A stretch of 64,000 bases of DNA from an uncultured Candidatus Marinamargulisbacteria bacterium. GTDB taxonomy: Bacteria > Margulisbacteria > Riflemargulisbacteria > GWF2-35-9. The stretch's first letter is position 1. Each line of letters starts with the position of its first letter. A model generated the notes under the pieces. It was not told where the DNA came from. It saw only the letters and a list, made by a program, of their open reading frames with translations, and ran no database searches. Position numbers and translations under genes: made by a program. Shown one piece after another: positions 1 through 54,300 of the stretch. Where the stretch lies: positions 5,844-69,843 of the forward strand of contig CAIWAN010000052.1 in assembly GCA_903910705.1 (NCBI GenBank), given 5' to 3'.

Positions 1-1026
1 CGAGATCTTATGCATTTCCTCGGTTCGGATCTGAACCTCGACGGGCTTTCCGCTCGGGCCAATAACCACCGTATGAATAGACTGATACATATTCTGTTTG
101 GGCATCGCGATATAATCCTTGAATCGACCCGGAATAGGCTTGCATTGCGTATGAATGATACCCAGAACGGCGTAACACTCTTTGACCTCTTTCACGATAA
201 TTCGAATGGCATAAAGGTCATAGAGGTTCTTAATAGTGGTACGTTGCTTGATCATTTTATTGTAAATCGACCAGAAATGTTTGGGCCGCCCTGTTACAAC
301 CGCAGGGATATCCTCGAGCGCGAGTAAGGTCTGAACGAGTTTAACAAAATCCTGAATGTAGAGTTCCCGACCCTCTCGCTTTTCGGCGATCTCACCTTTC
401 AATTTTTGGTAATCTTCTTCATACAGGTGGCGGAAACAAAGATCCTCTAGCTCCCATTTTATTTGACTCATCCCCAATCGATGGGAAAGGGGCGCATAAA
501 TATCAAGGGTCTCACGAGCGATCCGTCGCCGCTTATCCTCATCAAGGAACTTCAAGGTTCGCATATTGTGAAGGCGATCGGCTAACTTAATGATGACGAT
601 GCGAATATCCTTGGCCATGGCCAAAAACATCCGACGAAAATTCTCGATCTTCGCCTCTTCCGCACTCGAGAAATTCAATCGGCCGAGCTTCGTAACCCCC
701 TCGACGATCTCCGCCACATTTTCACCAAACAACCGAACGATCTCTTCATGGGACACATCGGTATCCTCGACCACATCATGCAGCATAGCCGCAATGAGTG
801 TCGTCTCGTCGGCCTCATATTCGGCTAGGATCTCAACCACATGAACGGGATGCCAAATATAAGACTCCCCTGACCGCCGTTTCTGGCCATCATGGGCTTT
901 CATCGAGAACTCAAAGGCCTCAATAAATTTCTCAAGATTGAAATGTTTGTTGTAGATTTTTATCGACTTGGCTAAACGGCGAATGGTATAACGCAGCTCT
1001 TGTTCCATAACGGTTAATCGTAACAT
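1..1026 (-). CDS. relA: (p)ppGpp synthetase/hydrolase RelA/SpoT family, N-terminal HD and synthetase region; the gene runs off the window edge
   Basis: Manual minus-strand translation from the ATG at 1026 gives MLRLTVMEQELRYTIRRLAK..HDGQKRRSGESYIWHPVHVVEILAEY..TLIAAMLHDVVEDTDV..RIVIIKLADRLHNMRTL. This carries the HD motif and RelA/SpoT hallmark blocks. It is not in the ORF track because it is partial. Confidence 0.85.
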   Translation of the reverse strand, partial: MLRLTVMEQELRYTIRRLAKSIKIYNKHFNLEKFIEAFEFSMKAHDGQKRRSGESYIWHPVHVVEILAEYEADETTLIAAMLHDVVEDTDVSHEEIVRLFGENVAEIVEGVTKLGRLNFSSAEEAKIENFRRMFLAMAKDIRIVIIKLADRLHNMRTLKFLDEDKRRRIARETLDIYAPLSHRLGMSQIKWELEDLCFRHLYEEDYQKLKGEIAEKREGRELYIQDFVKLVQTLLALEDIPAVVTGRPKHFWSIYNKMIKQRTTIKNLYDLYAIRIIVKEVKECYAVLGIIHTQCKPIPGRFKDYIAMPKQNMYQSIHTVVIGPSGKPVEVQIRTEEMHKIS

Positions 1027-1052
1027 GTTTTTTAGGTTTAATAACCCCTATT

Positions 1053-1535
1053 TTGGGGCACACTCTGAATATGGAACAAGAAGAACAACCCGAGACCTTC
1101 CGAGATATTGCGCGTGTTTGCGTTAAAAAGAACAATAAAGGGCCCTTTGATGAGCTCATTACCACCCTTTTCCGTATCAAACAGTTGACCGAATTTATTC
1201 CCCATATCGATTCAAAATGGGACAAGAAAACGGTTTTAATGAAATGTATCAGTCAAGGTCTCAAATACTCAAACTTCAAAAGCTTTAAAGACGAGGTCAC
1301 GGCCTATCCCAGCTTTAGCGATCTGGAAAATTGCAGCTCAATAAAAGAGTTCTATGCCTTATTGACCGAAGAAGAAAATCAAGAACCGATACACAAAAAG
1401 CTATTACAGCGTTTTCAAGGCATCCTTCATGAGCATGAATTCTCGCTTTCATTTTTGAAGAATTGGATCGCAAAAGATATCGAAGAACTCGAGCAGCAAG
1501 CCGAATACATCAAAATCACTCAACCAAACGGATAG
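1053..1535 (+). CDS. hypothetical protein (160 aa; the real start may be the ATG at 1071)
   Basis: Intact ORF with no recognisable motifs. Its stop lies 5 bp before the left 34-bp direct repeat. Confidence 0.4.
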   Translation: MGHTLNMEQEEQPETFRDIARVCVKKNNKGPFDELITTLFRIKQLTEFIPHIDSKWDKKTVLMKCISQGLKYSNFKSFKDEVTAYPSFSDLENCSSIKEFYALLTEEENQEPIHKKLLQRFQGILHEHEFSLSFLKNWIAKDIEELEQQAEYIKITQPNG

Positions 1536-1540
1536 CCCTC

Positions 1541-1574
1541 ACTCCTCCCGCATTAACTTCAAGAACATCGCAGC
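1541..1574. repeat. Left copy of a perfect 34-bp direct repeat ACTCCTCCCGCATTAACTTCAAGAACATCGCAGC. It is an orphan duplicate of the 3-prime end of gene 2495-3814.
   Basis: 34/34 identity with 2497-2530. Its reverse complement encodes AAMFLKLMREE plus a stop. Confidence 0.9.
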
Positions 1575-1577
1575 CTA

Positions 1578-1606
1578 TTGATTTATACCTCAATAATAGG
1601 TAATAT
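1578..1606 (+). promoter_or_regulatory. sigma70-like promoter TTGATT-N17-TAATAT driving the cassette genes
   Basis: -35 at 1578-1583, a 17-nt spacer, and -10 at 1601-1606. It is followed by a GGAGG RBS at 1616-1620 and the ATG at 1630. Confidence 0.5.
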
Positions 1607-1629
1607 AACCTTCATTGGAGGTATGATTT

Positions 1630-1965
1630 ATGTTAGATTACTTGTTTGGAAATAAAAATATTGAAAAAATACTGCAATATTTATCAAAGAACAAAACGGG
1701 GTATGCTTACGAACTCTCGCGACAATTTGGATGCTCTCTTGCACCGATCCAAAAAACCCTCAATAAACTTGAGCGGGGCGGACTCCTAGTTAGTCTAAAC
1801 ATAGGAAAAACACGACAATTTCAATTTAATCCAAAGTATCCCTTTCTAAATGAGATTGAGGCACTCGTCAAAGCAGCTTATCGTTTTCTACCCGAGGATC
1901 AGAAATTAACGTATCAACGCCTTACCAGAAAGCGTCCAAGACGAGCGAACAAGCCATTGCTGTGA
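1630..1965 (+). CDS. winged-helix DNA-binding protein, putative antitoxin/regulator (AbiEi- or MarR/PadR-like)
   Basis: 111 aa with a wHTH-like segment GYAYELSRQFGCSLAPIQKTLNKLERGGLLVS and a basic tail. A GGAGG RBS sits 9 nt upstream. Its stop overlaps the next start (GTGA). Confidence 0.55.
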   Translation: MLDYLFGNKNIEKILQYLSKNKTGYAYELSRQFGCSLAPIQKTLNKLERGGLLVSLNIGKTRQFQFNPKYPFLNEIEALVKAAYRFLPEDQKLTYQRLTRKRPRRANKPLL

Positions 1966-2492
1966 CAATTCCTATTGTTAAAGATCTGTCCATCTCTGAC
2001 CTAGCAGCCTTTATTGGTGGATATTTAGAACAACAGGGTGTGGATGTCGTTTTGGTCGGTGGAGCATGTGTATCCATTTATTCAAAACATGCTTACATCT
2101 CAGGTGATTTAGATTTAATTACTTATCACGAAGGCAAAAAGATCAAAGAAGCGCTGTCTCGCATCGGGTTCAGGTTTACAAAGAATAACTATTTTGTTCA
2201 TTCAGAGAGCAACTTTATTCTAGAGTTCGTGAACCCGCCTGCAGCAATAGGCCGAGACGCCATTACAGAGTTTGCGCAATATAAAACAAATCTTGGTTCA
2301 ATAAAGCTCCTAACGCCTACAGACTGCGTAAAAGATAGGCTTACAGCCTACTTCTATTGGAACGATGAACAGTCCCTTGAACAAGCTTTACTTGTTGCAA
2401 GAGAACAAACAATAAACCTTTCTTTGTTGGAAATTTGGGCAAAAAGAGAAAAACAATTGGGCAAGTTTTCCACGTTTATTTCTCTCATTTAA
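1962..2492 (+). CDS. minimal nucleotidyltransferase-fold protein (AbiEii/MNT-like), putative toxin
   Basis: GTG start overlaps the upstream stop. The sequence VVLVGGACVSIYSKHAYISGDLDLITYHE matches the pol-beta NTase signature (hGG-x12-S-x-D-h-D). Confidence 0.5.
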   Translation: MTIPIVKDLSISDLAAFIGGYLEQQGVDVVLVGGACVSIYSKHAYISGDLDLITYHEGKKIKEALSRIGFRFTKNNYFVHSESNFILEFVNPPAAIGRDAITEFAQYKTNLGSIKLLTPTDCVKDRLTAYFYWNDEQSLEQALLVAREQTINLSLLEIWAKREKQLGKFSTFISLI

Positions 2493-2494
2493 CG

Positions 2495-3814
2495 CTACTC
2501 CTCCCGCATTAACTTCAAGAACATCGCAGCGTCATTGGTCTGCATCGTCGAGAGCAGTTTTGCCTTCTTTTTGACCGACATTTTATCAAGGATCTTTTTG
2601 CATTCTGGGGGCGACAAATGCTTCCAAATAACCAAGACGTCATCGGGGGGCACCTTTTCCCAGACCCGAATGAACTGTTGAAAGTTTTTTGAGGGTTCCT
2701 CTGTCAACGTCCCTCGCGTCATTTCTTTGTAATACGTCGCAACTTTTTCAGATGGCAGGGCAACAAATAACTTGGTAACGGTTCTGTCCGACAGAGCCAA
2801 TAAAATATCTTCGACGGCTTTGTTATTCATTCGCGTAAATATCGGCGGCAAGGCATTGATGTCCATCTTTTCGTAAACAGCCGCTAGTTGTCGACGTTTC
2901 TTTTTGGCCTCTTCGACAACATTCACCGTTGGCTGAACCGCCACCCCATTTGTCTCGGTCGGGGCTATTGACGCAGACGGCATTTGGGGGATCGCAGGCA
3001 GCAAAAAGGACGCGGCCGGAACATCTTGACCATCGGGCGGAGGCGGCTCATCGATACCAACAACCCCCATTGCAACGCGGGTACTATTTATCCATTGGTA
3101 CAACAAATGGCGGGGGGGCACATTGAGACCGATCGCATCCTCACGACTCACTTGAAACATCTCTTGCTTTCCGAGCATCGCACAGTAACTTCCCGAACTA
3201 ATAAGAGGGACTAATTCATTGAAATCAGCATGGAGATTTACCGCATCATACAGGCGTTGCGCGACTTGTTTGGTTCGAATATACGGTGTTTTGCTGCCCT
3301 GTCCGACGAGGATCTTCATGATCTGAACATTATCGACCCAGAGTTCTGAAAATTCTTTATTTTTTACAATATTTCGGATGACCCGAAATCGATACAAAAA
3401 AGGAGGCGTCTGTTCCGAACTCTCAATATCGGCGACCTCTCTGATATCGAGATTAAACTCGCCAATTCGCTTGATTTGATTTTGAGCCGAAATACGTTCC
3501 TTGGCCCACGCAACACGTTGTTCTTGAGCAGCAATTTTCTGAACGGTACTCGCTATAAAAGGCAACCGATAGGCCACTCTCTTTGGCAAATATCCCATAA
3601 AGGCCAAGTTGGCGATGACTAAATACAAAAGAAAGATCAACAAAAAGAGACTCAATGCGATGAGAATACCTGACACAACGGAACGTCTAACCCGTTGAGG
3701 GTCTAGTTTCTTTTTCGGGTGTTTTAGGCGGCGCTTATGGGTTTTGACCTTTTTTGCTGCTTCCGCTCTGCCTTGTTCTTCATCCATGATCGTTATCATA
3801 TCAAAGATTCGCAC
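2495..3814 (-). CDS. membrane-anchored protein with a C-terminal helical MgtE_N/FliG-like domain; possibly a flagellar accessory protein of the YlxF/MotE type
   Basis: 439 aa with an N-terminal basic region and one TM helix (ILIALSLFLLIFLLYLVIANLAF). It is divergent from fliK. The functional assignment is weak. Confidence 0.4.
   Translation of the reverse strand: MRIFDMITIMDEEQGRAEAAKKVKTHKRRLKHPKKKLDPQRVRRSVVSGILIALSLFLLIFLLYLVIANLAFMGYLPKRVAYRLPFIASTVQKIAAQEQRVAWAKERISAQNQIKRIGEFNLDIREVADIESSEQTPPFLYRFRVIRNIVKNKEFSELWVDNVQIMKILVGQGSKTPYIRTKQVAQRLYDAVNLHADFNELVPLISSGSYCAMLGKQEMFQVSREDAIGLNVPPRHLLYQWINSTRVAMGVVGIDEPPPPDGQDVPAASFLLPAIPQMPSASIAPTETNGVAVQPTVNVVEEAKKKRRQLAAVYEKMDINALPPIFTRMNNKAVEDILLALSDRTVTKLFVALPSEKVATYYKEMTRGTLTEEPSKNFQQFIRVWEKVPPDDVLVIWKHLSPPECKKILDKMSVKKKAKLLSTMQTNDAAMFLKLMREE
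2497..2530. repeat. Right copy of the 34-bp direct repeat. It forms the actual 3-prime end of gene 2495-3814.
   Basis: Identical to 1541-1574. Confidence 0.9.
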
Positions 3815-3959: not shown

Positions 3960-5573
3960 ATGCAAGCGGTCACACAAGTATCCTCGTTAGGGGATCAAAC
4001 GCTATTCTTCTCGTCATCGTCAAAAAACACGGATTCTTCTTTTGCAGATATTTTTGCCAAAGAGAGTCAATCCCCTCCTGCTGAATCGAAAGCGGAGACG
4101 CCGACTAAGCCATCCACCGTTTCGGCCGAAGCCAATAAACCCGCCGAGAACAAATCAAGTCCCTCAACGGAAGCCAGTGAAACGACAAAAGCTGAGGCCA
4201 CCAACAAAGAAACCAAAGAGGCTCAAGCCAAACTCGAGGAAGAAGCCCTTAAAGAAAAGGTCAACACGCTCGTTTCAACAACGCCCACGTCCATCGCCTT
4301 TTTGCCAACACTCACGTCAAAAGAAACACTGGCCAAGCCAAACCATGCCACAAAGTGGACAGAGATCCCTCCGGTCACCCTTCGACTAAGCGGGAAATCG
4401 ATTACGTCTTCAGACCTCAATACAACGAATAATACAGACCTTGCGACCTTAGCCAAAAACATCAAAGAATTAGCCCCCCTTCTGGCCAAGCTGAAAGATA
4501 AGGTGGACATGTCCGCAGAGGAACGAACGAATTTGATGGCCCTCATTTCAAAAATATCGCAAAGCCTTTCAACCCTTCAGACACAATCCGCATCGCTTTC
4601 TATCGATCAAAAGAATATCCTTGCGTCCTTAAACACCCTTAAAGACTCCTTAACAACATCGCTACAAGTATCGAACGCCTCGTCACAAGCATTACCCCTT
4701 CAACGTTCAACGGATCAATCGGCTTCGTCCATCGCAACACTTCTCCAAGACCTACAAGGTTATGTTGAAGAGGTTAAAAAAACTCAAACCTTTAAGACAG
4801 AACTTATTAAGGGGATTGATCTTAGCCAAAAGAACGCGACGATCCAACCGGTTGCAACAAACCTGCAAACCCCTGAAGCGATCGCTGCAGCATCCGTTGT
4901 CGAATCCACGCCAGAAGTTGTTGATGCATTAAGTCAGGACATCGCCCCACCAGAAAAAACCAAATCACAAACCAGCAAGCAGCTTACCGATATGATAAAG
5001 CCTCTTTTTAGCGACAATCTCAATGTTGTCAACCTAAACACCGACACCAAGGCGGCCCCCCAAGCTCAACCATCTGTTGCGGCCACAGCACCACTTGCAG
5101 GGGCACCCCAAACCGCTAACATCGAAAAACAAACCGCCATTCTGTCGCAATTTACAACCTTTATGGCCGTCACCAAGCTTCGCTCAGAAACCGAAGTAAC
5201 GCTTCGTCTACATCCTCGCGAATTAGGGGACATTAAGATTCAGATCACTCGCACAGAGAACCAAGCCCTTCACGAGCCAGCGACTATTTCCGCTAAGTTC
5301 CAAGTCAACAGCGAGATGGTCAAATCCGTCCTTGAAAGCAATTTCAATTTACTCAAAGATAGCCTTCAACAGCAAGGCAACTTTAATATGGCGCAAATGA
5401 GTGTTGATGTCCAAACCAATGGATCTCAGAACCAGGGTTTTCAAGACAATCAGGAAAGCGCATCCAATCAGGGTTTTTACTCGAATCCTTTAGTCAATGA
5501 GGATCATTTTGTTGCAAACTCGTCCCCTTCCTTAGCTATCGCACATAGCGGGGATTTGGACAGAGTGGCCTAA
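3960..5573 (+). CDS. fliK: flagellar hook-length control protein FliK
   Basis: S/T/A/K-rich low-complexity N-terminal region and a C-terminal Flg_hook-type block LRLHPRELGDIKIQITRTENQALHEPATISAKFQVNSEMVKSVLESNF. The start is placed at the ATG at 3960, which has a GGGAG RBS. The ORF is open from 3744, with alternative in-frame ATGs at 3850 and 3933. Confidence 0.65.
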   Translation: MQAVTQVSSLGDQTLFFSSSSKNTDSSFADIFAKESQSPPAESKAETPTKPSTVSAEANKPAENKSSPSTEASETTKAEATNKETKEAQAKLEEEALKEKVNTLVSTTPTSIAFLPTLTSKETLAKPNHATKWTEIPPVTLRLSGKSITSSDLNTTNNTDLATLAKNIKELAPLLAKLKDKVDMSAEERTNLMALISKISQSLSTLQTQSASLSIDQKNILASLNTLKDSLTTSLQVSNASSQALPLQRSTDQSASSIATLLQDLQGYVEEVKKTQTFKTELIKGIDLSQKNATIQPVATNLQTPEAIAAASVVESTPEVVDALSQDIAPPEKTKSQTSKQLTDMIKPLFSDNLNVVNLNTDTKAAPQAQPSVAATAPLAGAPQTANIEKQTAILSQFTTFMAVTKLRSETEVTLRLHPRELGDIKIQITRTENQALHEPATISAKFQVNSEMVKSVLESNFNLLKDSLQQQGNFNMAQMSVDVQTNGSQNQGFQDNQESASNQGFYSNPLVNEDHFVANSSPSLAIAHSGDLDRVA

Positions 5574-18294: not shown

Positions 18295-19608
18295 ATGAAA
18301 CGTCAAATCGAATCAAAACTGCAAAGATGGAAAGAAACTGACGCTCGAAAACCCTTGATTCTGAATGGGGCAAGGCAGATTGGAAAAACATACAGCCTCA
18401 TTGAGATTGGTAAAACAAATTTTCGCAACCTCATCTACATAAACTTTGAAGCACAGCCCGATTATAAAAGGATCTTTGATCGCGACGTAGAACCTTTACG
18501 AATACTTCAAGAGATCAATATGCTTTTGGGCACCTCGATAAAGGCAGGGCAGGATCTCCTTTTCTTTGACGAGATACAAGAGTGCCCTCGCGCGCTCACG
18601 AGCTTGAAATACTTCTGCGAAACCCTACCGGACCTTCATGTTTGTGCCGCGGGATCTCTTCTTGGACTTGAACTCAACGAAGCTGCCTTTCCGGTCGGGA
18701 AAGTCGAGATGCTCGACATGCATCCCCTCTCGTTTCATGAATTTTTATTAGCGGCGGATGATAAGCTTGCGGCCTTAACAGAGCAATCAGCTGTCGTTCC
18801 CGAGGCCATCCATAAGCGGCTCTGGGATTACTTAAAAAAATACTTTATCCTCGGAGGTCTTCCTGAGGTCATTGCTAGCTACATTCAACATGCAGGCGAT
18901 GAAGCCACTGCGTTTGAAAACGCACGCCAAGTTCAACTTCAACTCATACAGGGCTATATTGCAGATATGGCCAAACATTCCGGCAAACAAAATGCGATGC
19001 ACCTTGAACGAATTTGGAAAAACATCCCCGTTCAGCTCGCTCGAAAAGTTGATCTAACCACGTCGAAATACTCGTTCAAGGGGGTAATACCCAAAATCGA
19101 TCGATATTCGCGTCTTGTTGGAAGTCTCGACTGGCTAGAAAAGGCCGGACTGGTGATTCGTGTACCCATTTTAGACCACATTGACCTGCCATTATCGGCT
19201 CAAGTTCAAGAAAACACCTTTAAACTATATATTTTTGACGTAGGGCTCTTGGGAGCTCTTTCCGGACTATCTCCCCAGACCCTCTGGGCCCAAGATTATG
19301 GCTCATATAAAGGCTATTTTGCCGAGAACTTCGTCGCACAAGAACTCATAGCACACGGCAGAAGGCCCTTGTTTGGATGGGAAGGCCGTACGTCCGAAGT
19401 TGAATTCGTCCTCGATATTGCGGGAAAGATTATCCCTGTCGAGGTAAAGGCTGGCCATATCACTCGTTCACAAAGCATGAACGTTTATCAATCAAAATTT
19501 GCCCCACAAAAAGGATTTCTGCTGAGCGCCAGAAACGCGCCCCTCATCGAATCCACATGGATCACTCATCTTCCGCTTTATCAAGCGAGTAAGATTGGCC
19601 TGTCTTAG
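18295..19608 (+). CDS. AAA+ ATPase of the AAA_14/DUF4143 family
   Basis: Walker A GARQIGKT. The length and C-terminal region are typical of DUF4143 ATPases. Confidence 0.75.
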   Translation: MKRQIESKLQRWKETDARKPLILNGARQIGKTYSLIEIGKTNFRNLIYINFEAQPDYKRIFDRDVEPLRILQEINMLLGTSIKAGQDLLFFDEIQECPRALTSLKYFCETLPDLHVCAAGSLLGLELNEAAFPVGKVEMLDMHPLSFHEFLLAADDKLAALTEQSAVVPEAIHKRLWDYLKKYFILGGLPEVIASYIQHAGDEATAFENARQVQLQLIQGYIADMAKHSGKQNAMHLERIWKNIPVQLARKVDLTTSKYSFKGVIPKIDRYSRLVGSLDWLEKAGLVIRVPILDHIDLPLSAQVQENTFKLYIFDVGLLGALSGLSPQTLWAQDYGSYKGYFAENFVAQELIAHGRRPLFGWEGRTSEVEFVLDIAGKIIPVEVKAGHITRSQSMNVYQSKFAPQKGFLLSARNAPLIESTWITHLPLYQASKIGLS

Positions 19609-42139: not shown

Positions 42140-43678
42140 ATGTTCTTATTCATATTAACCATTGTACTCCTCGCTATTTTTGCGGGCGGACTCTACTGGA
42201 TCGGCTTAAAAAATGCTGTCGTAGGCCGAAAAGAAAAAGATGCAGAATCGAAGGCAGCCAAAATATTAAAAGACGCTGAACGAAACGCAGACGATATGCG
42301 TCGTGAAGCACTCATTCAAGGAAAAGAAGAAATTCATCGTCTTCGAAATGATCTGGAAGATGAAATGCGAGAACGTCGCGACAAACAGCTTCTCTTGGAA
42401 ACTCGCTTGCTTCAGCGAGAAGAGCATCTTGACCAACGAGAGGCGAACTTAGAGGTGAGAGACAATGAACTGAATCAGAAGAAATTAGGATTAGAACGAC
42501 AACAGGCCGACCTTGATCTTGTTTACAAACAGCAGGTCGATATTCTAGAACGCGTCGCAGGGCTATCGCAGGACGAAGGGAAAAAACTCTTGCTTGAAAA
42601 TCTCGAACGCGATGTCAAATACGAGGCAGCTAAGCTCATTAAAGAAACAGAAGATATGGCGATAAAGACAGCTCAACGGAAAGCGCGTGAGATCATCGCT
42701 ACCGCGATCCAACGCTGTGCGGTTGATAATGTTGTCGAACTGACCACTTCCGTCGTTGCGCTCCCAGGAGACGAAATGAAGGGACGCCTTATTGGTCGTG
42801 AAGGTCGCAATATCCGTGCCTTTGAAACCATGACCGGCATCGACCTCATTATTGATGACACACCTGAAACCGTTATTCTTTCTGGATTTGATCCTATTCG
42901 TCGGGAGATTGCTCGTCAAACGCTGAGCAAACTGGTTCAGGATGGAAGAATTCACCCCACTCGAATTGAAGAAGTCTACGAACAATGCAAAAAAGATCTT
43001 GAGTCAACCATTATGGATATTGGCGAACGAACCGCCATCGAGGTTGATGTCCAAAACCTAAGTCCACAGATCATCTACTTGCTTGGTCGACTTCACTATC
43101 GGACCAGTTATGGCCAAAATGTTCTCAGTCATAGTATCGAAGTGGCACATATCGCTTCATTGATGGCTCAAGAACTAGGCGTTAATCCTCGTCTTGCACG
43201 CCGAGCAGGGTTACTCCATGATCTAGGCAAAGCGATCGACTTCGAACGCGAAGGAACCCATGCCAGCTTAGGCGCAGAATTCGCGCAAAAAAATGGCGAA
43301 AATGAAGAAGTTGTCCACGCGATACTTGCCCACCACGAAGAGCAAAAACCTCAAACGATTGAAGCCATTTTGGTCGCATCAGCTGACGCGGTTTCGGCCT
43401 CTCGTCCAGGAGCTCGACGCGAATCCGTTGAAGCCTACATTAAACGACTAGAAAACCTCGAACAGTTAGCCGTTTCTTTCCAAGGCGTTGAAAAAGCTTT
43501 CGCGATCCAGTCGGGTCGAGAAGTTCGGGTGATGGTTAAACCCGATATCATTAATGATAAGTTAGCCTCAAAATTGGCGCACGATATTGTTCGAAAGATC
43601 GAAAGTGAACTCGAATATCCGGGCACCATTAAAGTAACCGTCATTCGTGAGACTCGTGTTCAAGATGTGGCGAAGTAA
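42140..43678 (+). CDS. rny: ribonuclease Y
   Basis: N-terminal TM helix, coiled-coil, KH domain (GREGRNIRAFE) and HD domain (HSIEVAH...LLHDLGK). Confidence 0.9.
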   Translation: MFLFILTIVLLAIFAGGLYWIGLKNAVVGRKEKDAESKAAKILKDAERNADDMRREALIQGKEEIHRLRNDLEDEMRERRDKQLLLETRLLQREEHLDQREANLEVRDNELNQKKLGLERQQADLDLVYKQQVDILERVAGLSQDEGKKLLLENLERDVKYEAAKLIKETEDMAIKTAQRKAREIIATAIQRCAVDNVVELTTSVVALPGDEMKGRLIGREGRNIRAFETMTGIDLIIDDTPETVILSGFDPIRREIARQTLSKLVQDGRIHPTRIEEVYEQCKKDLESTIMDIGERTAIEVDVQNLSPQIIYLLGRLHYRTSYGQNVLSHSIEVAHIASLMAQELGVNPRLARRAGLLHDLGKAIDFEREGTHASLGAEFAQKNGENEEVVHAILAHHEEQKPQTIEAILVASADAVSASRPGARRESVEAYIKRLENLEQLAVSFQGVEKAFAIQSGREVRVMVKPDIINDKLASKLAHDIVRKIESELEYPGTIKVTVIRETRVQDVAK

Positions 43679-48373: not shown

Positions 48374-51300
48374 TTATCGTAACAACCCTGCTTTGACTCG
48401 AACTTTATTTTGTGGCCCTTCTTTTTCAGCTTGAATCACGATCGTATACCCACCCTTTGAAACCTTTTCATTCAATTGATCGGTTCCATTCCATTTTACT
48501 ATGTTGGGCTGAGTACTATCTCCTCCCACTTGGCCAGCACCGAAACCCATCTCCTTAACAAAATGGCCTAATGCATCATAAATCTTGATACTCACATTGG
48601 TATCTTGATTCAACTCATAGTAAATCTGTCCCTCATCAGCATCCGCCTTAAAAGGATTGGGATAAAATGAAGCATTATAGATAACCTCATTCGGCTTCAC
48701 GACATCCGTATAGTCCGACATCAACCAAGCCGTCTCACTTCCAGCCATATTAACCGCTCTAACCCGATATCGATATCGCTTTGATTGGTCGATATTGGAC
48801 GATTTATAGTAATTCTGGGTTAGCGTCATATCTAAGTCATCCCATTTCTCGCTATTTGCTTTTTGCCACTGCAATTCATAATGAGATAACCCTGACTCAT
48901 CATCTCGAGCAGCTGGCCAAGACAGGAACTGATTGACAAGGGCTTGGGCAACCAATGTTTGATTTTGAACAATTTGAGGTTGATTAACAAAGACCTTACT
49001 TCCTCCAGGAAGAACGGGGGGGGTAAGGTCAACTTTGAACCCAAGATCTTTCTGACTTGAAACATAGGAAGCGAGCGAATTATCCTCACTATAGGCACGC
49101 AACCTTAAAATATAATTCGTATTATGTTTTAACGAAAGTCCGCTGAAATATTGGTGTTCCTCTGGCAAATACAAACTATTATCAATGGTAATCGTTGTCC
49201 AAGGTCTAATATGGGTTACACCTAGATCACCATCGATCGCATACTCGATCCGCACGATCCTTGATTGGGGGGACTTTATGTTATTGAGTTTGACATCAAA
49301 GGTTAAACTAATGGCATCCGATCTATTTACAAATGACTTCATGGCAACATCTTCAATAATGGGTTGACGAAGATCCACAATTCTTAGGGTACTCAACTCA
49401 ACATTAGCCGTATTCATTATCTTTGCATTTAATGACAATCGATCCGGTGCAAGAATTAGCTGAAGATCCCCCGTTGAACAATTGTCTTTAAGTCTCATAT
49501 TTAAATAAAAATACTGATCGATAGGCGTCAGCATAATCGGCGAAGCAAAATTGAGTCTGATCTTATTATCTTGTCGATCCATAACCGTATTGATGAACGG
49601 TTGAGCGGACGTATTAAGCGTCAGTGCAGATACCGTTTCGTAGGGCACATTGGCTGATATATTAAAATCAAGATGATTGAGGGATACCTCATTGCGATCC
49701 ACCTTGAAATTAAAAACTTCATAAGGGCTTACCCCATCACCCTGATAAACATCACTGCTCGAACCCGCCCAAGCTGAAATGGTGATCTGGGGTAAGTACG
49801 CTCTGATGATCGATGGCTGAAGAAGTAATGGAAGTGTGTTCGAATTTACATTTTGATTGACGTCCAATTTAATATCGTTCCGAGAATCAAAGTAGGGTTG
49901 GAACTTTTTCCCTACGGGCGACGTTAACGAAATATCTCCAGCGAGATACAGGGTCTGTGGCGAATTCCCTACGATCCAACGAAGGGGTCTAAAAACGATC
50001 TTTCCATCAATTTTGTAGGCAGGAATGGACGTTAACAGCGTATCTTCACTTGGCGACAGTTTGTCGTCATAGTTTGATTCTCTGTATAGTCTCAAATTGC
50101 TAAGGTTTTCAGTAATTGATAGATTCCCTGAAACATTAAACGTTATTTCCTGTACCATGGTCGAATAGGGGTAGCTCTCCATCATCACTCTAGCTAAGAC
50201 GACGGTTTGATCCGCTTGATATACGTTGCCCCATTGTTGAGACCAACTTGAATCTTTGACATAAACACTCAATTGATTCGCTCCGCCCAAAATATCAAAT
50301 GTGGGAGTGGTGGCAGGGATCACCGACGAAACCATGACATCATAAGTCCCAACACTAACACCTCCAGACGGAATATATAAACTGAATGGATCCATAGCCG
50401 ACGATTCAATGTCTACTTGAAGAACAATACGAGTCAAGCCAGAAATCCTGTTCGGGGTTCTAAACTCAAACTGGGTCTCCATTCGGGTATTATCAAACCC
50501 AGCTTCACTGACAATATCCTCCGAGATAAGCAATCGAACATTCTTCAAACTCTTCCCCATCGGATCACCATATTTGTTCAACTTTATCCCTTTGATCCAT
50601 GCTACAGAAGACGATGAAACGACAATTTCAGCAATATCCACTTGCCGTTGGCCTCGATAGACATTACTCGTTAACACGTTCATGGAGATCACCCACAATC
50701 GAGGTTGAAGTTCCCGTTTAACATCAAGAATATTACCCGCTCGATCCGTTATCCTTAGATCCAGATAGGGATCTTGGGTCGGATTAACATTAACGTTAGC
50801 GGAAAACACTCTCGAAGAATTGGTCAAGAACGTCATGTCTTTGGTACTCATGACGTCTGAGCCAAAAGGATAGGATCTGATCTGCGCATCACTTATTGAT
50901 ACCCACTCTGAAGCGGATATGATCAATGAAACATTTATTGAACCCACATTCTGAGTACTCAATGGGACATAATCCAATGTAATAATGGGCGTTGTTATAT
51001 CAATCGTTATTCGTTGCATCGCACTCGCTGTTGACACATATCCAGTCAAACTCTTATGCCACACATAAAAGGTTTTTACTAAATAGCCCTGAACCGCGTC
51101 ATAGCCAATCATATCATATGTAACATCACTGGCCTCGAAGGGCACGCTTAGATTGTCTTTTACGGGGGGGCTACACAACTTCCAGCGAGAGTCCCCTGCC
51201 ATTGGACGATCGGCCGAAGAAGAATCGATTATATAATACATATCACTTGAAATAATAAGCAGAATCTTAAGAGTTGACTTGTTTGTATTTTCAAGGGGCA

Positions 51301-54300
51301 ACGGATTATCTCCTTCTCCAGCCGGATCAACGATTTTCATAACGGGTTTGGGTGGATATTGGAGTTTTACATAAATTGTCTGTACACCCAGATTAAGGGT
51401 TGAGATATTCGCAGCCCGATCCTCCATAAGCAGATTCAATGTAGCGAATCCCTCGCCCATATCCTCATTGAAATTAAACTCTGCTATAAATCGTCGAGGC
51501 CCGCCTGAAACGGACATTCGAATCGACTGTGTCGCTTGAGCGGGGAATTGAATGCTCAGCGATGGGGGAACGAACAGGTCTTCATTTGTCGTGATACTAA
51601 ACATTTTCATCCCAAACCGATTCAAATCTGATAATTGTTGGACTTTTCCGCTGGGTAAAGTCGTATCCACAAATATATTTACCGTTGAGGCTCTTAGACT
51701 CATACCCTGATCATTTTTCACCCAAGCATAAACAGAATGGGTTCCTTCTGACATTGCAGGAAGCACATATTGCCCCGCCCAAGCTACCCAAGCAGGATCA
51801 ACCGAAGGGGGTTTGGTTGCATTATCTGTAAGGAACCATGCCCATGTGGGATGAAGTGAAGCATAATGACTTGAAAGAATAAGATTCGACGTCCCCGTAT
51901 AAAGAGCCGAGCCATTAAGCGGATTGATCATGATCAGATCAGGAGGCTGGGGAAGATATCGATATGCAAGGATTTCCTTATCACCCTGAATGGGGATAGA
52001 GGCTAACATCCCACTCTTCCCGACCACTTTATATCTCAACTGCCCGATACCATCAATAAAAGACAAGGTGTCGAGCGTTGCAATGTATTGATAGTTGCCT
52101 AATGAAGCAACCCCAAAAGAATAGGGTTCTAACCCCGAGTTCATAGACAGTTTCAAGTCAGGCATCCAACCAAGAGGCTGATTTGCAGTGATCAAAACCG
52201 TAAGGATTGTATCTGTTTTAATTTCATTGGGTGTGATGAATACTGAAAATACAGGTGCTACTCTTAATACAGAGATAGACACGCTTGCCTCTGAATAATT
52301 GCCCGCTCGATCAACGGCGAGAAGCGTGACCCGATGGATAGCATCCACCAAAAAGGTGGGCGTAATGATCATTTGATTTGAGGTCAACACCACGGATCGG
52401 CTCGTGAGAGAGGGCTGATCAACCCTGAAGAAATACGGAACAGATTTCAGGGCAATATTATCAAAGGCTCCATTATAGGTAACCGTGATCATGCCATCAT
52501 CATCAAACCCTGGTAAGGGGGCGAAACCATCCGAAAGATCAGTCTCGTCTTGCTCTAGGAATAAATCTCCCAATATGGGCGGGGTCGTGTCCACTGTAAT
52601 TTGAGTTGAAAAGGTCGCCACATTGCCAGCCCGATCGATAGCTCTGACAATAATGGATTGCACCCCTTCTGAAACACTAAACCCATTAATGAACGGAGTG
52701 CTCTGACTGGGACTCCAATTATCAAATAGGCTGCTTTGTATTTCATACGGTTTTGTTCTTAGCCCCCCACCAATGGGCTCGACCCATTCCAGATCAAGCG
52801 TGACTCTTGAATAATATCCACTTTCTTCTTTAAAGTAGGTGTTTTTTGGAACCATGGGTTTGACCGAGATATAGCTATTAACGGGAGGTTCTGTATCCAC
52901 ATAAACTTTGGTCACCGTCTTAAGACTATTTCCAGCTTTATCCACAATAAGGGCATAAATATTTATTGGATGTACGCCTGCCGGCGTTAACTCAACACTA
53001 AACTCAGATGAACCAAAAACATTGAATTGATCATTTCGATTTCCCTGAACATATAAATAGGCATCACGAGTGTTTGTTTCAGTAAGTATGTTCCAAGATA
53101 TTTGTCCAAAAATGATCGGACTATCATACCAACCACTTTCCGGATCAATACCATCGCCACGACTATCTAAATCAGCCGAAATTATCAGTTGCAAACCATT
53201 GGCCGATGGGGGTGTTGTATCAACATTCACAGTTACCCGAGTCATTGAACAATTCCCTGCACGATCAGCGGCCTCGATTTCATAGACGTATTGTCCATCG
53301 GGAAACGCTACACAGAAAATGTCCGTCGAATTAAAGATCTCGGACCACTGACTGATATTTGGACTGAGACTTCGGTAACGATAGGGAGCATTTCTTAATC
53401 CACCTTGATCATCCGGTAGGGCAATCTTTATATCCAATGTATTTATATCCGACCAACCTGCATCCGGTGCGATACCATCTCCACCATGGTCAATGAGAGC
53501 CCCTAATTGCGCCGCCAACATTGTGGGTGGATTTAGGTCAATAACAATCTGCCGTTTATTCTCGATCAGGGTTCCGTTCTTAAGCCGAATCCCATAAACA
53601 AGCGTCAATCCGTCCCGTTCGCTACTATTTAATGAAAGACTAAAGGTATTATTCACACTCAAAAAAACGTCTCCAGCGTAGCGCGCGTCATAGGCATAAT
53701 AAAGCAAGTCTTGGGTTAGCTGCTGCGCAGATAGAATCGGCAGGTAGTTCGTCGTAATAACTAAGGTCAGTGTCGGTACATTAAAACACCCTAGTTCGGG
53801 AGCTTTACCCCCAATAGCGGACCGAGTGACACCCTCCTCAGGAATGACCCCATTTATCCAATAGGAATCATTTGTAACGATCAGATTCGATACATTTACC
53901 GTCCCGATCAGATTAGCCGTGTTCCCTGCGTGATCACGAACTTCAAGCTCAAAATACTCGGGAATCCCCCACGTGGTTATGATCTGCGTTCCTGTTTGAC
54001 GATTCCAAATACTCCAACTTGAATGGGGTTCACTTAGATTATGGTATCGATACGGCATCGACGAAAGCCCCGCCCTATCGCTCGCTTGCCATTGCCAATT
54101 AACAAGCTGGCTATCATACCACCCATCCGCAAGCCGTCCGCCTATATCCGTATAGTCTGGCATCAGGGTTAATTTCGAAACCGTTGGAGGAACCGTATCG
54201 ATCTGGAAACCATTGGACTCGACTTTTAAACTATTGCCGGCTCTATCCACGACTTTCAATATAAGGGTGTTTGCTAAAGAATCATCACTCACATTTAGGT

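Follow-up and report, generated by a model that had tools for sequence, protein, structure and literature searches.

Related Nucleotidyltransferase Modules

Nucleotidyltransferase (NTase) toxins, such as AbiEii and MenT, form an abundant family involved in phage defence and persistence. In AbiE and MenAT systems a DNA-binding partner is encoded first in a bicistron and a pol-beta-fold NTase second, under a promoter with two inverted repeats that fits negative autoregulation; in the NTase, motif I (hGG...DxD) is accompanied by a third carboxylate and by a lysine in a helix, and the partner is either a two-domain protein of the AbiEi/COG5340 type or the MenA1 helix. A single mode of control has been proposed for these toxins, antitoxin-induced autophosphorylation, the phosphoacceptor being the motif-I Ser/Thr (S78 in MenT3, T39 in MenT1) (PMC11375011; bioRxiv 10.64898/2026.01.19.700257). 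The catalytic core of MenT is positively charged (PMC11375011). Two further groups are relevant. First, MNT-HEPN systems (MntA-HepT; PDC-M05) are mobile two-gene modules with a minimal NTase, which in this case is the antitoxin. Second, the resistance enzymes ANT(2'')-Ia and LnuA are two-lobed minimal NTases of about 160-177 aa, encoded by mobile genes lacking an obligate overlapping winged-helix (wHTH) partner.

The locus described here lies in a 64 kb window (the whole stretch of DNA that was analysed) and shares with AbiE/MenAT the gene order, the two inverted repeats of the promoter and motif I of the NTase, together with a likely third carboxylate and a candidate helix lysine. The original prediction was of an AbiE-like, type IV toxin-antitoxin (TA) or abortive-infection pair. 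The likeness is upheld by the wHTH and NTase folds, the TA-like bicistron and the fold matches to MenT1 and MenT3, whereas membership in the AbiE family is not, as neither the Pfam family of AbiEii nor any AbiEi family matches. The type IV label is out of date, AbiE having been reclassified as type VII by a 2026 preprint, and the small size of the NTase, taken earlier as a possible sign of novelty, is shared by MenT1 (about 190 aa; PDB chains of 184-195 residues compared to 176 aa here). Our best reading is that of a new NTase-type toxin-antitoxin or addiction/abortive-infection module (type II/VII-like) with a putative toxin, to which we give about an even chance.

Organization of the Cassette

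Re-reading of the open reading frames reproduced the two overlapping genes that had been proposed, ORF1 and ORF2. Positions refer to the window:

1575..2496, plus strand: inserted cassette of 922 bp, containing a promoter, operators and two genes, and nothing else
1630..1965, plus strand: ORF1, ATG start, 111 aa, predicted ArsR/MarR-like winged-helix repressor and putative antitoxin
1962..1965, plus strand: GTGA, overlap of the ORF1 stop and the ORF2 start
1962..2492, plus strand: ORF2, GTG start, 176 aa, predicted minimal pol-beta-fold NTase with a C-terminal four-helix domain, putative toxin/effector

The cassette begins 3 nt before the -35 box and stops 4 nt past the ORF2 stop codon, and the 4-nt overlap suggests translational coupling of ORF2. 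No HEPN-like or other obvious toxin gene was found within the cassette in the ORF list or by a Pfam scan, and Rfam yielded no RNA family within positions 1000-3000. The same arrangement was found in independent contigs from several samples, which excludes an assembly artefact. That positions 1575-2496 constitute a two-gene unit which is complete in itself, moves horizontally, belongs to an uncharacterised family and works like a TA module is a proposition that we would place halfway between doubtful and probable.

Predicted Nucleotidyltransferase ORF2

The signature GG-x12-SGDLDL, reported earlier in ORF2, is exact (L31-V-G33-G34, 12 residues, S47-G-D49-L-D51-L), and the NTase fold, suggested at that time from the signature, was obtained as a high-confidence model (AF2 pLDDT 94.8, pTM 0.89). 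The candidate active-site elements are:

2058..2117, plus strand: catalytic motif I, G33-G34-x12-S47-G-D49-L-D51-L
2223..2225, plus strand: E88, likely third metal-binding carboxylate, in the neighbouring strand (86-90) of the model
2331..2339, plus strand: K124-D125-R126, motif-III-like, with the candidate NTP-binding lysine, at the start of helix 119-133

In the alignment of 52 homologues, residues G33, G34, S47, D49, K124 and D125 are invariant, D51 and R126 are conserved in at least 90%, W133-x-D135, a candidate counterpart of the C-terminal catalytic motif IV of DUF1814, is also conserved, and position 88 is occupied by E or D in all alignment rows shown. Motif I is intact in 87 of the 88 loci, its spacing (G33-G34-x14-D49-L-D51) being one residue longer than in the textbook pattern hG[GS]-x9-13-Dh[DE]h. 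The role of K124 in NTP binding may be proposed by analogy with K189 of MenT3 (PMC11375011). The model and the alignment indicate that ORF2 is a catalytically intact minimal pol-beta-fold NTase. In contrast to AbiE/MenAT, where the position after the first motif-I Gly is Ser/Thr, all 52 homologues have Gly (Gly34) at this acceptor position, and neutralisation thus cannot use antitoxin-induced autophosphorylation of the MenT/AbiEii kind.

Every significant PDB match of the ORF2 model in Foldseek had the NTase fold; the matches included 5uvd, ANT(2'')-Ia, MenT3/TglT, LnuA, MenT1, TM1012, and JHP933, with resistance NTases and MenT toxins matched about equally (TM ~0.5 for all). A profile search of PDB sequences with the ORF2 family returned only 5uvd (E = 0.5). 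In a Pfam scan at E up to 1, ORF2 matched DUF2204 only, below threshold, and neither AbiEii/DUF1814 (PF08843) nor NTP_transf_2; with a cut-off of E = 0.01, PF08843 was likewise absent from the matches of all 52 family members, and there was no NCBIfam match. The closest sequence families are DUF2204 (PF09970) and DUF6036 (PF19502), of similar length (about 180 aa). ORF2 scores 17.0 bits against DUF2204, compared to the gathering threshold of 20.3, over residues 18-62 only; 42 of the 52 family members match it, weakly (best E = 1.3e-5), four match DUF6036, and two homologues carry a precomputed PF09970 label. As no function is known for either family, the label explains nothing; literature searches on DUF2204, DUF6036 and NTase TA systems of Leptospira plasmids gave nothing relevant. 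None of the PADLOC defence models fits ORF2, its ZorG and AbiEii matches being at noise level. The likeness to MNT-HEPN consists in a minimal NTase in a mobile pair and in a partial match of the ORF1 wHTH to PDC-M05A; no HEPN partner is present here, neither ORF matches HEPN, and the ORF2 family does not match PDC-M05. ORF2 does match PHROG 13263 (E = 1.4e-34), and the proteins of both genes are included in PHROGs as families of unknown function.

Winged-helix Protein ORF1 and Putative Operator

For ORF1, a winged-helix protein with a basic tail had been predicted, and both traits were found. In the AlphaFold model (AF2 pLDDT 88.8) a wHTH with the recognition helix at residues 37-49 is followed by two helices and a coil tail of lower confidence, the best Foldseek matches being MarR/ArsR-SmtB repressors. 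The C-terminus reads R100-K-R-P-R-R-A-N-K-P-L-L, and the pI of the protein is 10.1.

1927..1962, plus strand: codons for the C-terminal tail of ORF1, family consensus RxRPRRxGKPL at the C-terminus

Residues R100, R102, P103, R104 and K108 of the tail are invariant in 39 aligned homologues, and Tyr95 is nearly so. A strict motif, R[KR]RPR[RK]..K, is matched in 45 of 88 loci; the printed ORF1 tails of the remaining 43 show, by eye, the core RPR[RKE]..KP. Unlike the partners of AbiE/MenAT toxins, ORF1 is a 111-aa ArsR/MarR-like wHTH protein with a conserved basic tail; it lacks the C-terminal domain of AbiEi, and no AbiEi family was detected in a Pfam scan at E up to 1. The possibility of a metal-sensing ArsR was considered and rejected, as the 39 homologues have no conserved Cys or His.

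Upstream of ORF1, the following elements were recognized:

1578..1583, plus strand: putative -35 box TTGATT, separated from the downstream -10 box by 17 nt, read from the sequence
1587..1601, unstranded: putative operator palindrome 1, ACCTCAATAATAGGT, ACCT-N7-AGGT
1601..1606, plus strand: putative -10 box TAATAT, between the two palindromes
1608..1622, unstranded: putative operator palindrome 2, ACCTTCATTGGAGGT, covering the Shine-Dalgarno sequence GGAGG of ORF1 (1617-1621)

A generic sigma-70 scan called no promoter at the cassette; the assignment was made from the TTGACA/TAATAT layout conserved in homologous loci, which mostly have TTGACA at the -35 place and, in most cases, the same arrangement of the -10 box and palindromes. 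The palindromes are 15 bp each and the only ACCT-N7-AGGT sites in the 64 kb window; as their starts are 21 bp apart, both would lie on the same face of the DNA. Two perfect palindromes with the same arms within 80 nt before ORF1 were found in 48 of 78 loci, compared to 1-5 of 78 in shuffled controls, and the real pairs (ACC/TACC arms) are spaced 21 bp. Moreover, residue 39 of ORF1 covaries with base 4 of the operator: A goes with a residue other than Pro in 45 of 46 loci, and T, C or G with Pro in all 23 (Fisher p = 2e-17, phylogeny not corrected for). This covariation would offer a ready-made specificity code for a compact repressor. With the -10 box between the palindromes and the ribosome-binding site covered by them, the operon probably represses itself; the DNA features and the predicted fold together suggest DNA binding and repression by ORF1.

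Distribution and Genomic Context

The family occurs in at least 590 species and forms about 2,100 clusters when grouped at 50% identity. Its members, those on plasmids of pathogenic Leptospira among them, are listed in RefSeq as 'hypothetical protein'; a name for the family would benefit the annotation of hundreds of genomes. In all 80 best genome loci an ORF1 homologue is encoded directly upstream of the ORF2 homologue, with a 4-nt start/stop overlap in 56 (ATGA in 36, GTGA in 16, TTGA in 4). Carriers among these loci belong to Margulisiibacteriota, Chlamydiota, Nitrospirota, Elusimicrobiota, Verrucomicrobiota, Actinomycetota, Omnitrophota, Armatimonadota, delta- and gammaproteobacteria, and others. 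Both host-associated groups (Simkania, Parachlamydiales, Rhabdochlamydiaceae) and groundwater Nitrospirota are among the carriers of the family. The pairwise identities of ORF1 homologues are correlated with those of ORF2 homologues (r = 0.81, a value reached in 0 of 999 Mantel permutations), which argues for co-evolution.

The neighbourhood of the module is variable. The 144 flanking genes fall into 157 different Pfam families, none of which is recurrent, and neither an integrase or transposase nor defence-island neighbours recur among them. The pair is thus small, invariant, horizontally moved and independent of context, as is typical for TA modules, and the original proposal of a mobile TA-type module agrees with the tight bicistron, the putative autoregulatory operator, the patchy occurrence across phyla and the variable neighbours. 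In a Thermodesulfovibrionia genome the module adjoins a HigA/Gp49 pair. It is also carried on 39 Leptospira plasmids, where it adjoins ParA/ParB and lies among Phd-PIN and NTase-antitoxin pairs. Among plasmid records, ORF1 and ORF2 each match 42, with the same organism make-up, and accession numbers that follow directly on one another suggest that a putative strain may carry the module on several plasmids. The INPHARED phage collection contained no match to the module and IMG/VR a single locus, which argues against a phage-borne system; this near absence and the lack of defence-island neighbours leave phage defence with no positive support.

Degraded copies were also found. On many L. interrogans plasmids ORF2 matches over its first 50-56% only and ORF1 over residues 25-110; on one of them (L089) an annotated ORF1 homologue adjoins the ORF2 stump. 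In one natural fusion of wHTH and NTase both the catalytic motif and the tail motif are lost; such a fusion hints at physical association of the two proteins.

Proposed Function and Alternative Explanations

If the pair is a TA or addiction module, it may work as follows. A winged-helix dimer of ORF1 would bind both 15-bp palindromes and shut off its own operon, while ORF2 would be made by translational coupling through the GTGA overlap. Free ORF2 would nucleotidylate an essential cellular target and so arrest growth; the 3' ends of tRNA could be this target, as suggested by MenT and AbiEii, and this is the weakest step of the scheme. ORF1 would neutralise ORF2 through direct binding, the best candidate for the neutralising element being the tail RxRPRRxGKPL, which may dock on the acidic active-site face of ORF2. 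Alternatively or additionally, the tail could serve as a minor-groove arm in the AT-rich centre of the operator, or as a protease degron making ORF1 labile.

Several observations count against the TA reading, besides the fold matches to non-toxic small-molecule NTases of equal size, which are about as good as those to MenT toxins. First, the putative antitoxin is basic and the putative toxin has a slightly acidic pI of 5.9 (family median 6.4), and in most type II pairs the pattern of charges is the reverse. Second, the acidity of ORF2, together with the small number of conserved basic residues in its family, is unlike an RNA-binding toxin, and it also sets ORF2 apart from MenT with its positively charged core. 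Third, ORF2 remains intact in loci with a damaged partner: the ORF1 wHTH is deleted in at least one locus, L039, a metagenome-assembled genome (MAG) whose name suggests low coverage, and ORF1 is disrupted on two L. noguchii plasmids, although an intact copy of it elsewhere in the same L. noguchii strain is plausible.

The acidity of ORF2 and its intact state where ORF1 is degraded would suit the main alternative, a repressor-controlled NTase cassette that is not toxic. ORF2 would then be a mobile regulated gene for resistance or stress response, acting on a small molecule, like the antibiotic-modifying ANT(2'')-Ia and LnuA, or on another non-essential acceptor; ORF1 would simply be its transcriptional repressor, and the likeness to a TA module superficial. 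Two enzymes of the size of ORF2, ANT(2'')-Ia (E = 2.4e-4) and LnuA (TM 0.57, normalised to target), are found among its best fold matches; the acidic ORF2 has invariant W133, D135, W159 and E163 in the C-terminal domain, as in pockets for cationic ligands; and detoxification genes are classically controlled by ArsR/MarR repressors. However, ORF1 is minimal (111 aa) and has no conserved Cys/His; no ligand pocket is evident, and conservation is highest in its disordered basic tail. Strict 1:1 pairing with an overlap and r = 0.81 over more than ten phyla would be unusual for a resistance gene, and the host range, with Simkania, other chlamydiae (Parachlamydiales, Rhabdochlamydiaceae) and groundwater Nitrospirota, differs from that of clinical resistance genes. 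Moreover, the module is found on plasmids close to bona fide TA pairs and to par loci, and ORF2 has no sequence similarity to any resistance NTase family, including those of ANT(2'')-Ia and LnuA. We regard this explanation as possible yet doubtful.

A two-subunit enzyme, or a type VII-like pair with the NTase acting on ORF1, is improbable, taking its two versions together. In one version ORF2 would nucleotidylate ORF1, e.g., at Tyr95 or in the tail, and tune its DNA binding, as MntA AMPylates HepT; in the other the basic tail of ORF1 would provide a nucleic-acid-binding surface, and the complex, not free ORF2, would be active. The invariant tail and nearly invariant Y95, as well as the complementary charges of basic ORF1 and acidic ORF2, would fit this explanation. 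The wHTH of ORF1 also matches the N-terminal part of the PADLOC profile PDC-M05A (E = 1.6e-8), a protein that is the NTase of a NTase-HEPN pair (PMC12988326), so that such a wHTH is linked to NTases elsewhere too; the absence of a HEPN-like or other obvious toxin from the cassette speaks against the explanation. Finally, the relatives P0271, P0333, and P0234 are fusions in which a NTase-like domain is joined to an extension rich in Lys/Arg or to the wHTH itself, but all three have lost the catalytic Asp residues and therefore do not demonstrate an active holoenzyme.

The literal first reading, a true miniature member of AbiE/MenAT (DUF1814), is very improbable and already contradicted by the sequence-family tests: in spite of MenT3 and MenT1 structures matched with a Foldseek probability of 1.0, AbiEi 6y8q in the ORF2 list, PADLOC AbiEii matches at E = 0.006-0.034 in 5 of 52 family members and the AbiE-like gene order and promoter with two inverted repeats, PF08843 is replaced by DUF2204/DUF6036 in the Pfam matches, neither MenT nor AbiEii chains were found by the profile search of PDB sequences, Gly takes the place of the motif-I phosphoacceptor (compare PMC11375011), and ORF1 is no AbiEi.

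A new NTase-type TA module would be of interest for the control of such toxins. A widespread minimal NTase with a different repressor and no phosphoacceptor would test how general autophosphorylation control is, and the ORF1/ORF2 family could reveal peptide-based NTase inhibition.

Insertion Site and Mobility

The cassette lies next to flagellar genes and had been taken for a horizontal acquisition. This view is supported by a perfect direct repeat, low GC content and absence from a relative:

1541..1574, unstranded: left copy of the perfect 34-nt direct repeat, ACTCCTCCCGCATTAACTTCAAGAACATCGCAGC
2497..2530, unstranded: right copy of the 34-nt direct repeat, now the 3' end of the MgtE_N gene
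2495..3814, minus strand: MgtE_N gene of the flagellar locus, its TAG stop completed by the last two bases of the insert

Between the repeats the GC content is 38.5%, compared to 44.8% for the window, which places this segment in the lowest 2.2% of equal-sized windows. The left repeat is a duplicate of the 11 codons with which the MgtE_N gene ends on the minus strand, and it has kept the original left context; it aligns with a single copy in the relative L086, where the product of the neighbouring gene is 76% identical and the cassette is absent. Insertion of the cassette would have taken place in the final 34 nt of the MgtE_N gene, with duplication of this stretch, so that the gene stayed intact. 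An exact empty site was sought by a look-up of the identical MgtE_N protein, which gave occupied sites only.

Two other candidates were rejected. Site-specific integration of the att type does not agree with flanking repeats that are wholly different between loci, nor with the fact that no integrase recurs nearby. The 982-nt contig L083 had raised the idea of a circular form, which was dismissed because the ends of this contig correspond to a break of the de Bruijn graph at the 34-nt repeat. Literature searches on TA cassettes flanked by direct repeats gave nothing relevant.

A joint reading, rather unlikely as a whole, would combine a new NTase TA family, neutralised via the RxRPRRxGKPL peptide, with a bare cassette serving as its own unit of mobility. 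Its first half would mean a family described neither in Pfam or NCBIfam nor in the literature and controlled without induced autophosphorylation; the second would imply insertion without a linked recombinase, producing target duplications of variable and unusually large length (about 30-55 bp). If true, this would mean that TA cassettes can insert by a route not yet described, and long duplications flanking a cassette that has no recombinase are relevant to the movement of chromosomal TA modules. L081 and L082 carry a cassette identical to the present one, and the flanking duplication measures 34 nt in the window, compared to 40 nt in L069 and 33 nt in L077.

Organization and conservation of the gene pair

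The cassette located at 1575-2496 (922 bp) contains a predicted promoter and operators, and two overlapping genes, whose originally predicted lengths and GTGA overlap, common to both genes at 1962-1965, were confirmed:

ORF1, 1630-1965, plus strand: ATG start, winged helix-turn-helix (wHTH) protein, 111 aa
ORF2, 1962-2492, plus strand: GTG start, nucleotidyltransferase (NTase), 176 aa

A scan limited to a single genome for each species found at least 590 ORF2-encoding loci. In the best 80 of them, an ORF1 homolog was always encoded immediately upstream on the same strand (80/80), with a 4-nt overlap in 56 loci (ATGA in 36, GTGA in 16, and TTGA in 4); other overlaps (4) and gaps of at most 11 nt (18) were found among the remaining loci. 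The pairwise identities of ORF1 and ORF2 are correlated (r = 0.81, a value reached by 0 of 999 Mantel permutations). ORF1 and ORF2 are one unit, occurring in Margulisiibacteriota, Chlamydiota, Nitrospirota, Elusimicrobiota, Verrucomicrobiota, Actinomycetota, Omnitrophota, Armatimonadota, Aminicenantes, delta- and gammaproteobacteria, and others. The 144 genes immediately flanking the pair at homologous loci matched 157 different Pfam families; no neighbor family beyond generic hydrolases recurred among them, and integrases and transposases were absent from the recurrent families.

Nucleotidyltransferase ORF2

Neither ORF1 nor ORF2 is named by curated libraries. For ORF2, the only Pfam match was a sub-threshold one to DUF2204 (E = 0.0048, residues 18-62), no match was found in NCBIfam, PADLOC yielded AbiEii at E = 0.034, and PHROGs yielded phrog_13263 (E = 1.4e-34), a family of unknown function. 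The homolog search brought up more than 1,100 relatives with a length near 176 aa; where these have a name at all, which is rare, it is "hypothetical protein" or "nucleotidyltransferase". An exhaustive profile search found 2,100 clusters (50% identity) at E <= 1e-3, 1,070 of them at E <= 1e-10.

The predicted motif GG-x12-SGDLDL is present, reading L-V-G33-G34, 12 residues, S47-G-D49-L-D51-L. Invariant positions of the alignment are G33, G34, C36, Y40, S47, D49, P93, G97, T120, K124, D125, W133, D135, W159, and E163; D51 and R126 are conserved in at least 90% of sequences, and position 88 is E or D. The AlphaFold model is confident (pLDDT 94.8, pTM 0.89) and has four helices C-terminal to an alpha/beta NTase core. 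All Foldseek matches in PDB, considered up to E of about 1e-2, were NTase folds or their close kin with TM-scores of about 0.5: 5uvd, ANT(2'')-Ia, MenT3/TglT, LnuA, MenT1, TM1012, JHP933, and also AbiEi 6y8q. Given the confident model and these matches, together with the conserved catalytic residues, the NTase fold and catalytic signature proposed for ORF2 are real. Toxin and antibiotic NTases fit the fold about equally well.

Winged-helix protein ORF1

ORF1 has only sub-threshold wHTH matches in Pfam (HTH_20, E = 7.5e-4). In PADLOC it matches the N-terminal part of PDC-M05A (E = 1.6e-8), the NTase of an NTase-HEPN candidate system (PMC12988326), and in PHROGs it matches phrog_18520, a family of unknown function. 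Nearly all of its 70 relatives found by homolog search are 111 aa long. Its AlphaFold model (pLDDT 88.8) is a winged helix with the order a1, a2, a3 (recognition helix), b-hairpin, a4, a5, and a coil tail; the nearest structures are MarR and ArsR/SmtB repressors (YusO, AntR, ZitR, SqrR, CadC, and SmtB).

The protein ends in RKRPRRANKPLL, the family consensus of the tail being RxRPRRxGKPL. Residues Q41, E48, G59, and P88 are invariant, as are R100, R102, P103, R104, and K108 of the tail. The strict motif R[KR]RPR[RK]..K occurs in 45 of 88 loci, and the other 43 tails, judged by eye as printed, have a looser C-terminal core, RPR[RKE]..KP. The winged helix and the basic tail of the original prediction are both upheld. 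With a pI of 10.1 (family range 9.2-10.9) ORF1 is basic, and with a pI of 5.9 (family median 6.4) ORF2 is mildly acidic.

Predicted promoter and operators

Homologous loci have a common upstream layout: a TTGACA-like -35 box, a 15-bp palindrome, a TAATAT-like -10 box, and a second 15-bp palindrome adjoining the Shine-Dalgarno sequence. Two perfect palindromes with the same arm were found in 48 of 78 loci, and shuffled controls gave 1-5 of 78; for the real operator pairs, those with ACC/TACC arms, the start-to-start distance is 21 bp. The corresponding elements upstream of ORF1, read from the window sequence, are:

1578-1583: putative -35 box, TTGATT
1587-1601: palindrome 1, ACCTCAATAATAGGT, predicted operator
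1601-1606: putative -10 box, TAATAT
1608-1622: palindrome 2, ACCTTCATTGGAGGT, predicted operator, covering GGAGG at 1617-1621

Apart from palindromes 1 and 2, the 64-kb window has no ACCT-N7-AGGT site. Base 4 of the half-site covaries with ORF1 residue 39, at the start of the recognition helix. By raw counts that ignore kinship, base 4 is A with a non-Pro residue 39 in 45 of 46 loci, and T, C or G with Pro39 in 23 of 23. A-class loci with AT have Asn38, and those with AA mostly have Tyr38 or Phe38. Such covariation is the pattern expected if ORF1 reads the palindromes. From the paired palindromes and the covariation, we conclude that ORF1 probably represses its own operon; the architecture is observed directly, and from it we infer binding by two dimers on the same DNA face.

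Operator-like palindromes, single or paired, are also located just downstream of the NTase gene at two loci from Chlamydiota or Verrucomicrobiota (L016, 1525-1562; L026, 5528-5542); these may provide repressor control of the neighboring gene or be remnants of a tandem copy.

Insertion of the cassette

The window originates from a flagellated Candidatus Margulisiibacteriota, its RNase Y (42140-43678) being 73-76% identical to those of Margulisbacteria MAGs, and flagellar, chemotaxis and Rnf genes are spread throughout. Perfect direct repeats of 34 nt lie on either side of the pair (1541-1574 and 2497-2530). In the flagellar cluster, a minus-strand gene with an MgtE_N domain has the right-hand repeat as its 3' end; the left-hand one is a duplicate with its original left context retained, and the identity stops exactly at the cassette start, 3 nt before the -35 box. 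The GC content of the insert is 38.5% vs. 44.8% in the window. The cassette is absent from a relative (L086, MgtE_N protein 76% identical), which has a single copy of the repeated sequence and a different neighboring gene. Identical occupied sites were found in independent samples. The repeat, the low GC content and the cassette-free relative bear out the proposed acquisition of the cassette beside the flagellar locus.

Direct repeats of unrelated sequence flank the pair elsewhere: 40/40 nt in L069 (4538-4577/5615-5654), where the duplicated sequence is the promoter of the downstream gene together with its first codons, 32/33 nt in L077 (92-124/1291-1323), 55 nt with about 80% identity in L040 (4473-4527/5590-5644), and 29-41 nt in L034, L032, L010, and L058. 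Between the repeats there is the wHTH-NTase pair and, at most, a single additional short ORF (54-98 codons) without annotation. A repeat score of at least 20 was obtained for 8 of 78 loci and for 1 of 183 control segments drawn from the same set of loci (Fisher p = 3e-4); in L016, counted among the eight, the duplication is operator-like and not a flanking repeat. As repeats of different loci share no sequence and no recombinase recurs nearby, att sites were rejected, and the repeats look like target duplications of variable length (29-55 nt), unusually long, that appear to leave the interrupted gene intact.

Just left of the cassette, a 160-aa ORF (1053-1535, plus strand) of low GC content (about 39%) has no Pfam, NCBIfam or PHROG match. 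It may also have been acquired, since L086 carries an unrelated convergent ORF at this position.

Plasmids, damaged copies and fused relatives

The module was found in 42 plasmid records, 39 from Leptospira and the others from Sulfurospirillum, Sulfurimonas and Bdellovibrio, and is essentially absent from phage collections. It lies between ParB- and ParA-type genes in pLiSL32, within a run of Phd-PIN, NTase-antitoxin and GNAT genes in pLiSL23, and abuts a HigA/Gp49 pair in a Thermodesulfovibrionia chromosome. Runs of consecutive accession numbers suggest that several L. noguchii plasmids, putatively of one strain, each carry a copy. In many L. interrogans plasmids the ORF2 match is limited to the first 50-56%, and the ORF1 match spans residues 25-110. 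L089, the plasmid of this kind that was inspected, has an ORF2 stump beside an annotated ORF1 homolog.

ORF1 is damaged and ORF2 intact in two L. noguchii plasmids and in a Chlamydiae MAG (L039). The latter (4800-4985) has lost the wHTH-coding part of ORF1, one operator and the tail-coding end being kept along with an intact NTase gene with the full catalytic motif. This deletion argues against strong toxicity, with the caveat that the MAG name suggests about 3x coverage.

Three NTase-family relatives from the exhaustive profile search (P0234, P0271, and P0333) are catalytically dead. One is fused to the wHTH partner, with the motif GP...KLH and a degenerate tail motif; two are extended at the N-terminus by about 75 aa rich in Lys and Arg, and in them S-x-E replaces D-x-D. 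These fusions to dead NTase-like domains hint that the basic segment and the NTase fold cooperate physically.

Possible function

The best-supported model is a toxin-antitoxin (TA)-like addiction or abortive module, in which ORF1 would serve as both autorepressor and neutralizer, and ORF2 would be an active NTase effector produced through translational coupling. The obvious candidate for neutralization is the tail of ORF1, which is basic, disordered and invariant and could dock on the acidic face of ORF2 that bears the catalytic site; the tail could also contact the AT-rich minor groove at the operator center or be a basic C-terminal protease degron. MuA-type ClpX signals are a precedent for the latter. 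MenT/AbiEii toxins add pyrimidines to tRNA 3' ends (PMC11375011), and by analogy ORF2 might target tRNA, which is uncertain because ORF2 is acidic. Their control by antitoxin-induced autophosphorylation of the motif-I Ser/Thr (PMC11375011) cannot operate in ORF2, as the acceptor position is the invariant Gly34.

It is possible that ORF2 is instead a non-toxic NTase under MarR/ArsR-type regulation, e.g., a modifier of a small molecule. Several points favor this: the fold is about as similar to ANT(2'')-Ia and LnuA as to toxin NTases; the enzyme is acidic, with conserved aromatic and acidic residues in its pocket; some loci have kept ORF2 without ORF1; and Makarova et al. give a caveat on TA look-alikes (PMC2701414). 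The NTase may also modify ORF1, as in a type VII-like scheme, or the pair may form a two-subunit enzyme; these are minor alternatives to the TA-like module. The originally proposed AbiE-like nature, taken as literal membership, was rejected by negative sequence-family tests; both partners differ from those of AbiE/MenAT, and so does the likely mode of control. Mobile bicistrons that combine a wHTH partner and an NTase effector are an already known concept, and searches of Pfam, NCBIfam, PADLOC and the available literature found no description of this wHTH-NTase family.

Other genes of the window

The last quarter of the window is filled by a giant ORF of 5,188 aa (48374-63940, minus strand). 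An ATPase with AAA_14 and DUF4143 domains is encoded at 18295-19608 (plus strand), an architecture common in mobile or defense contexts.
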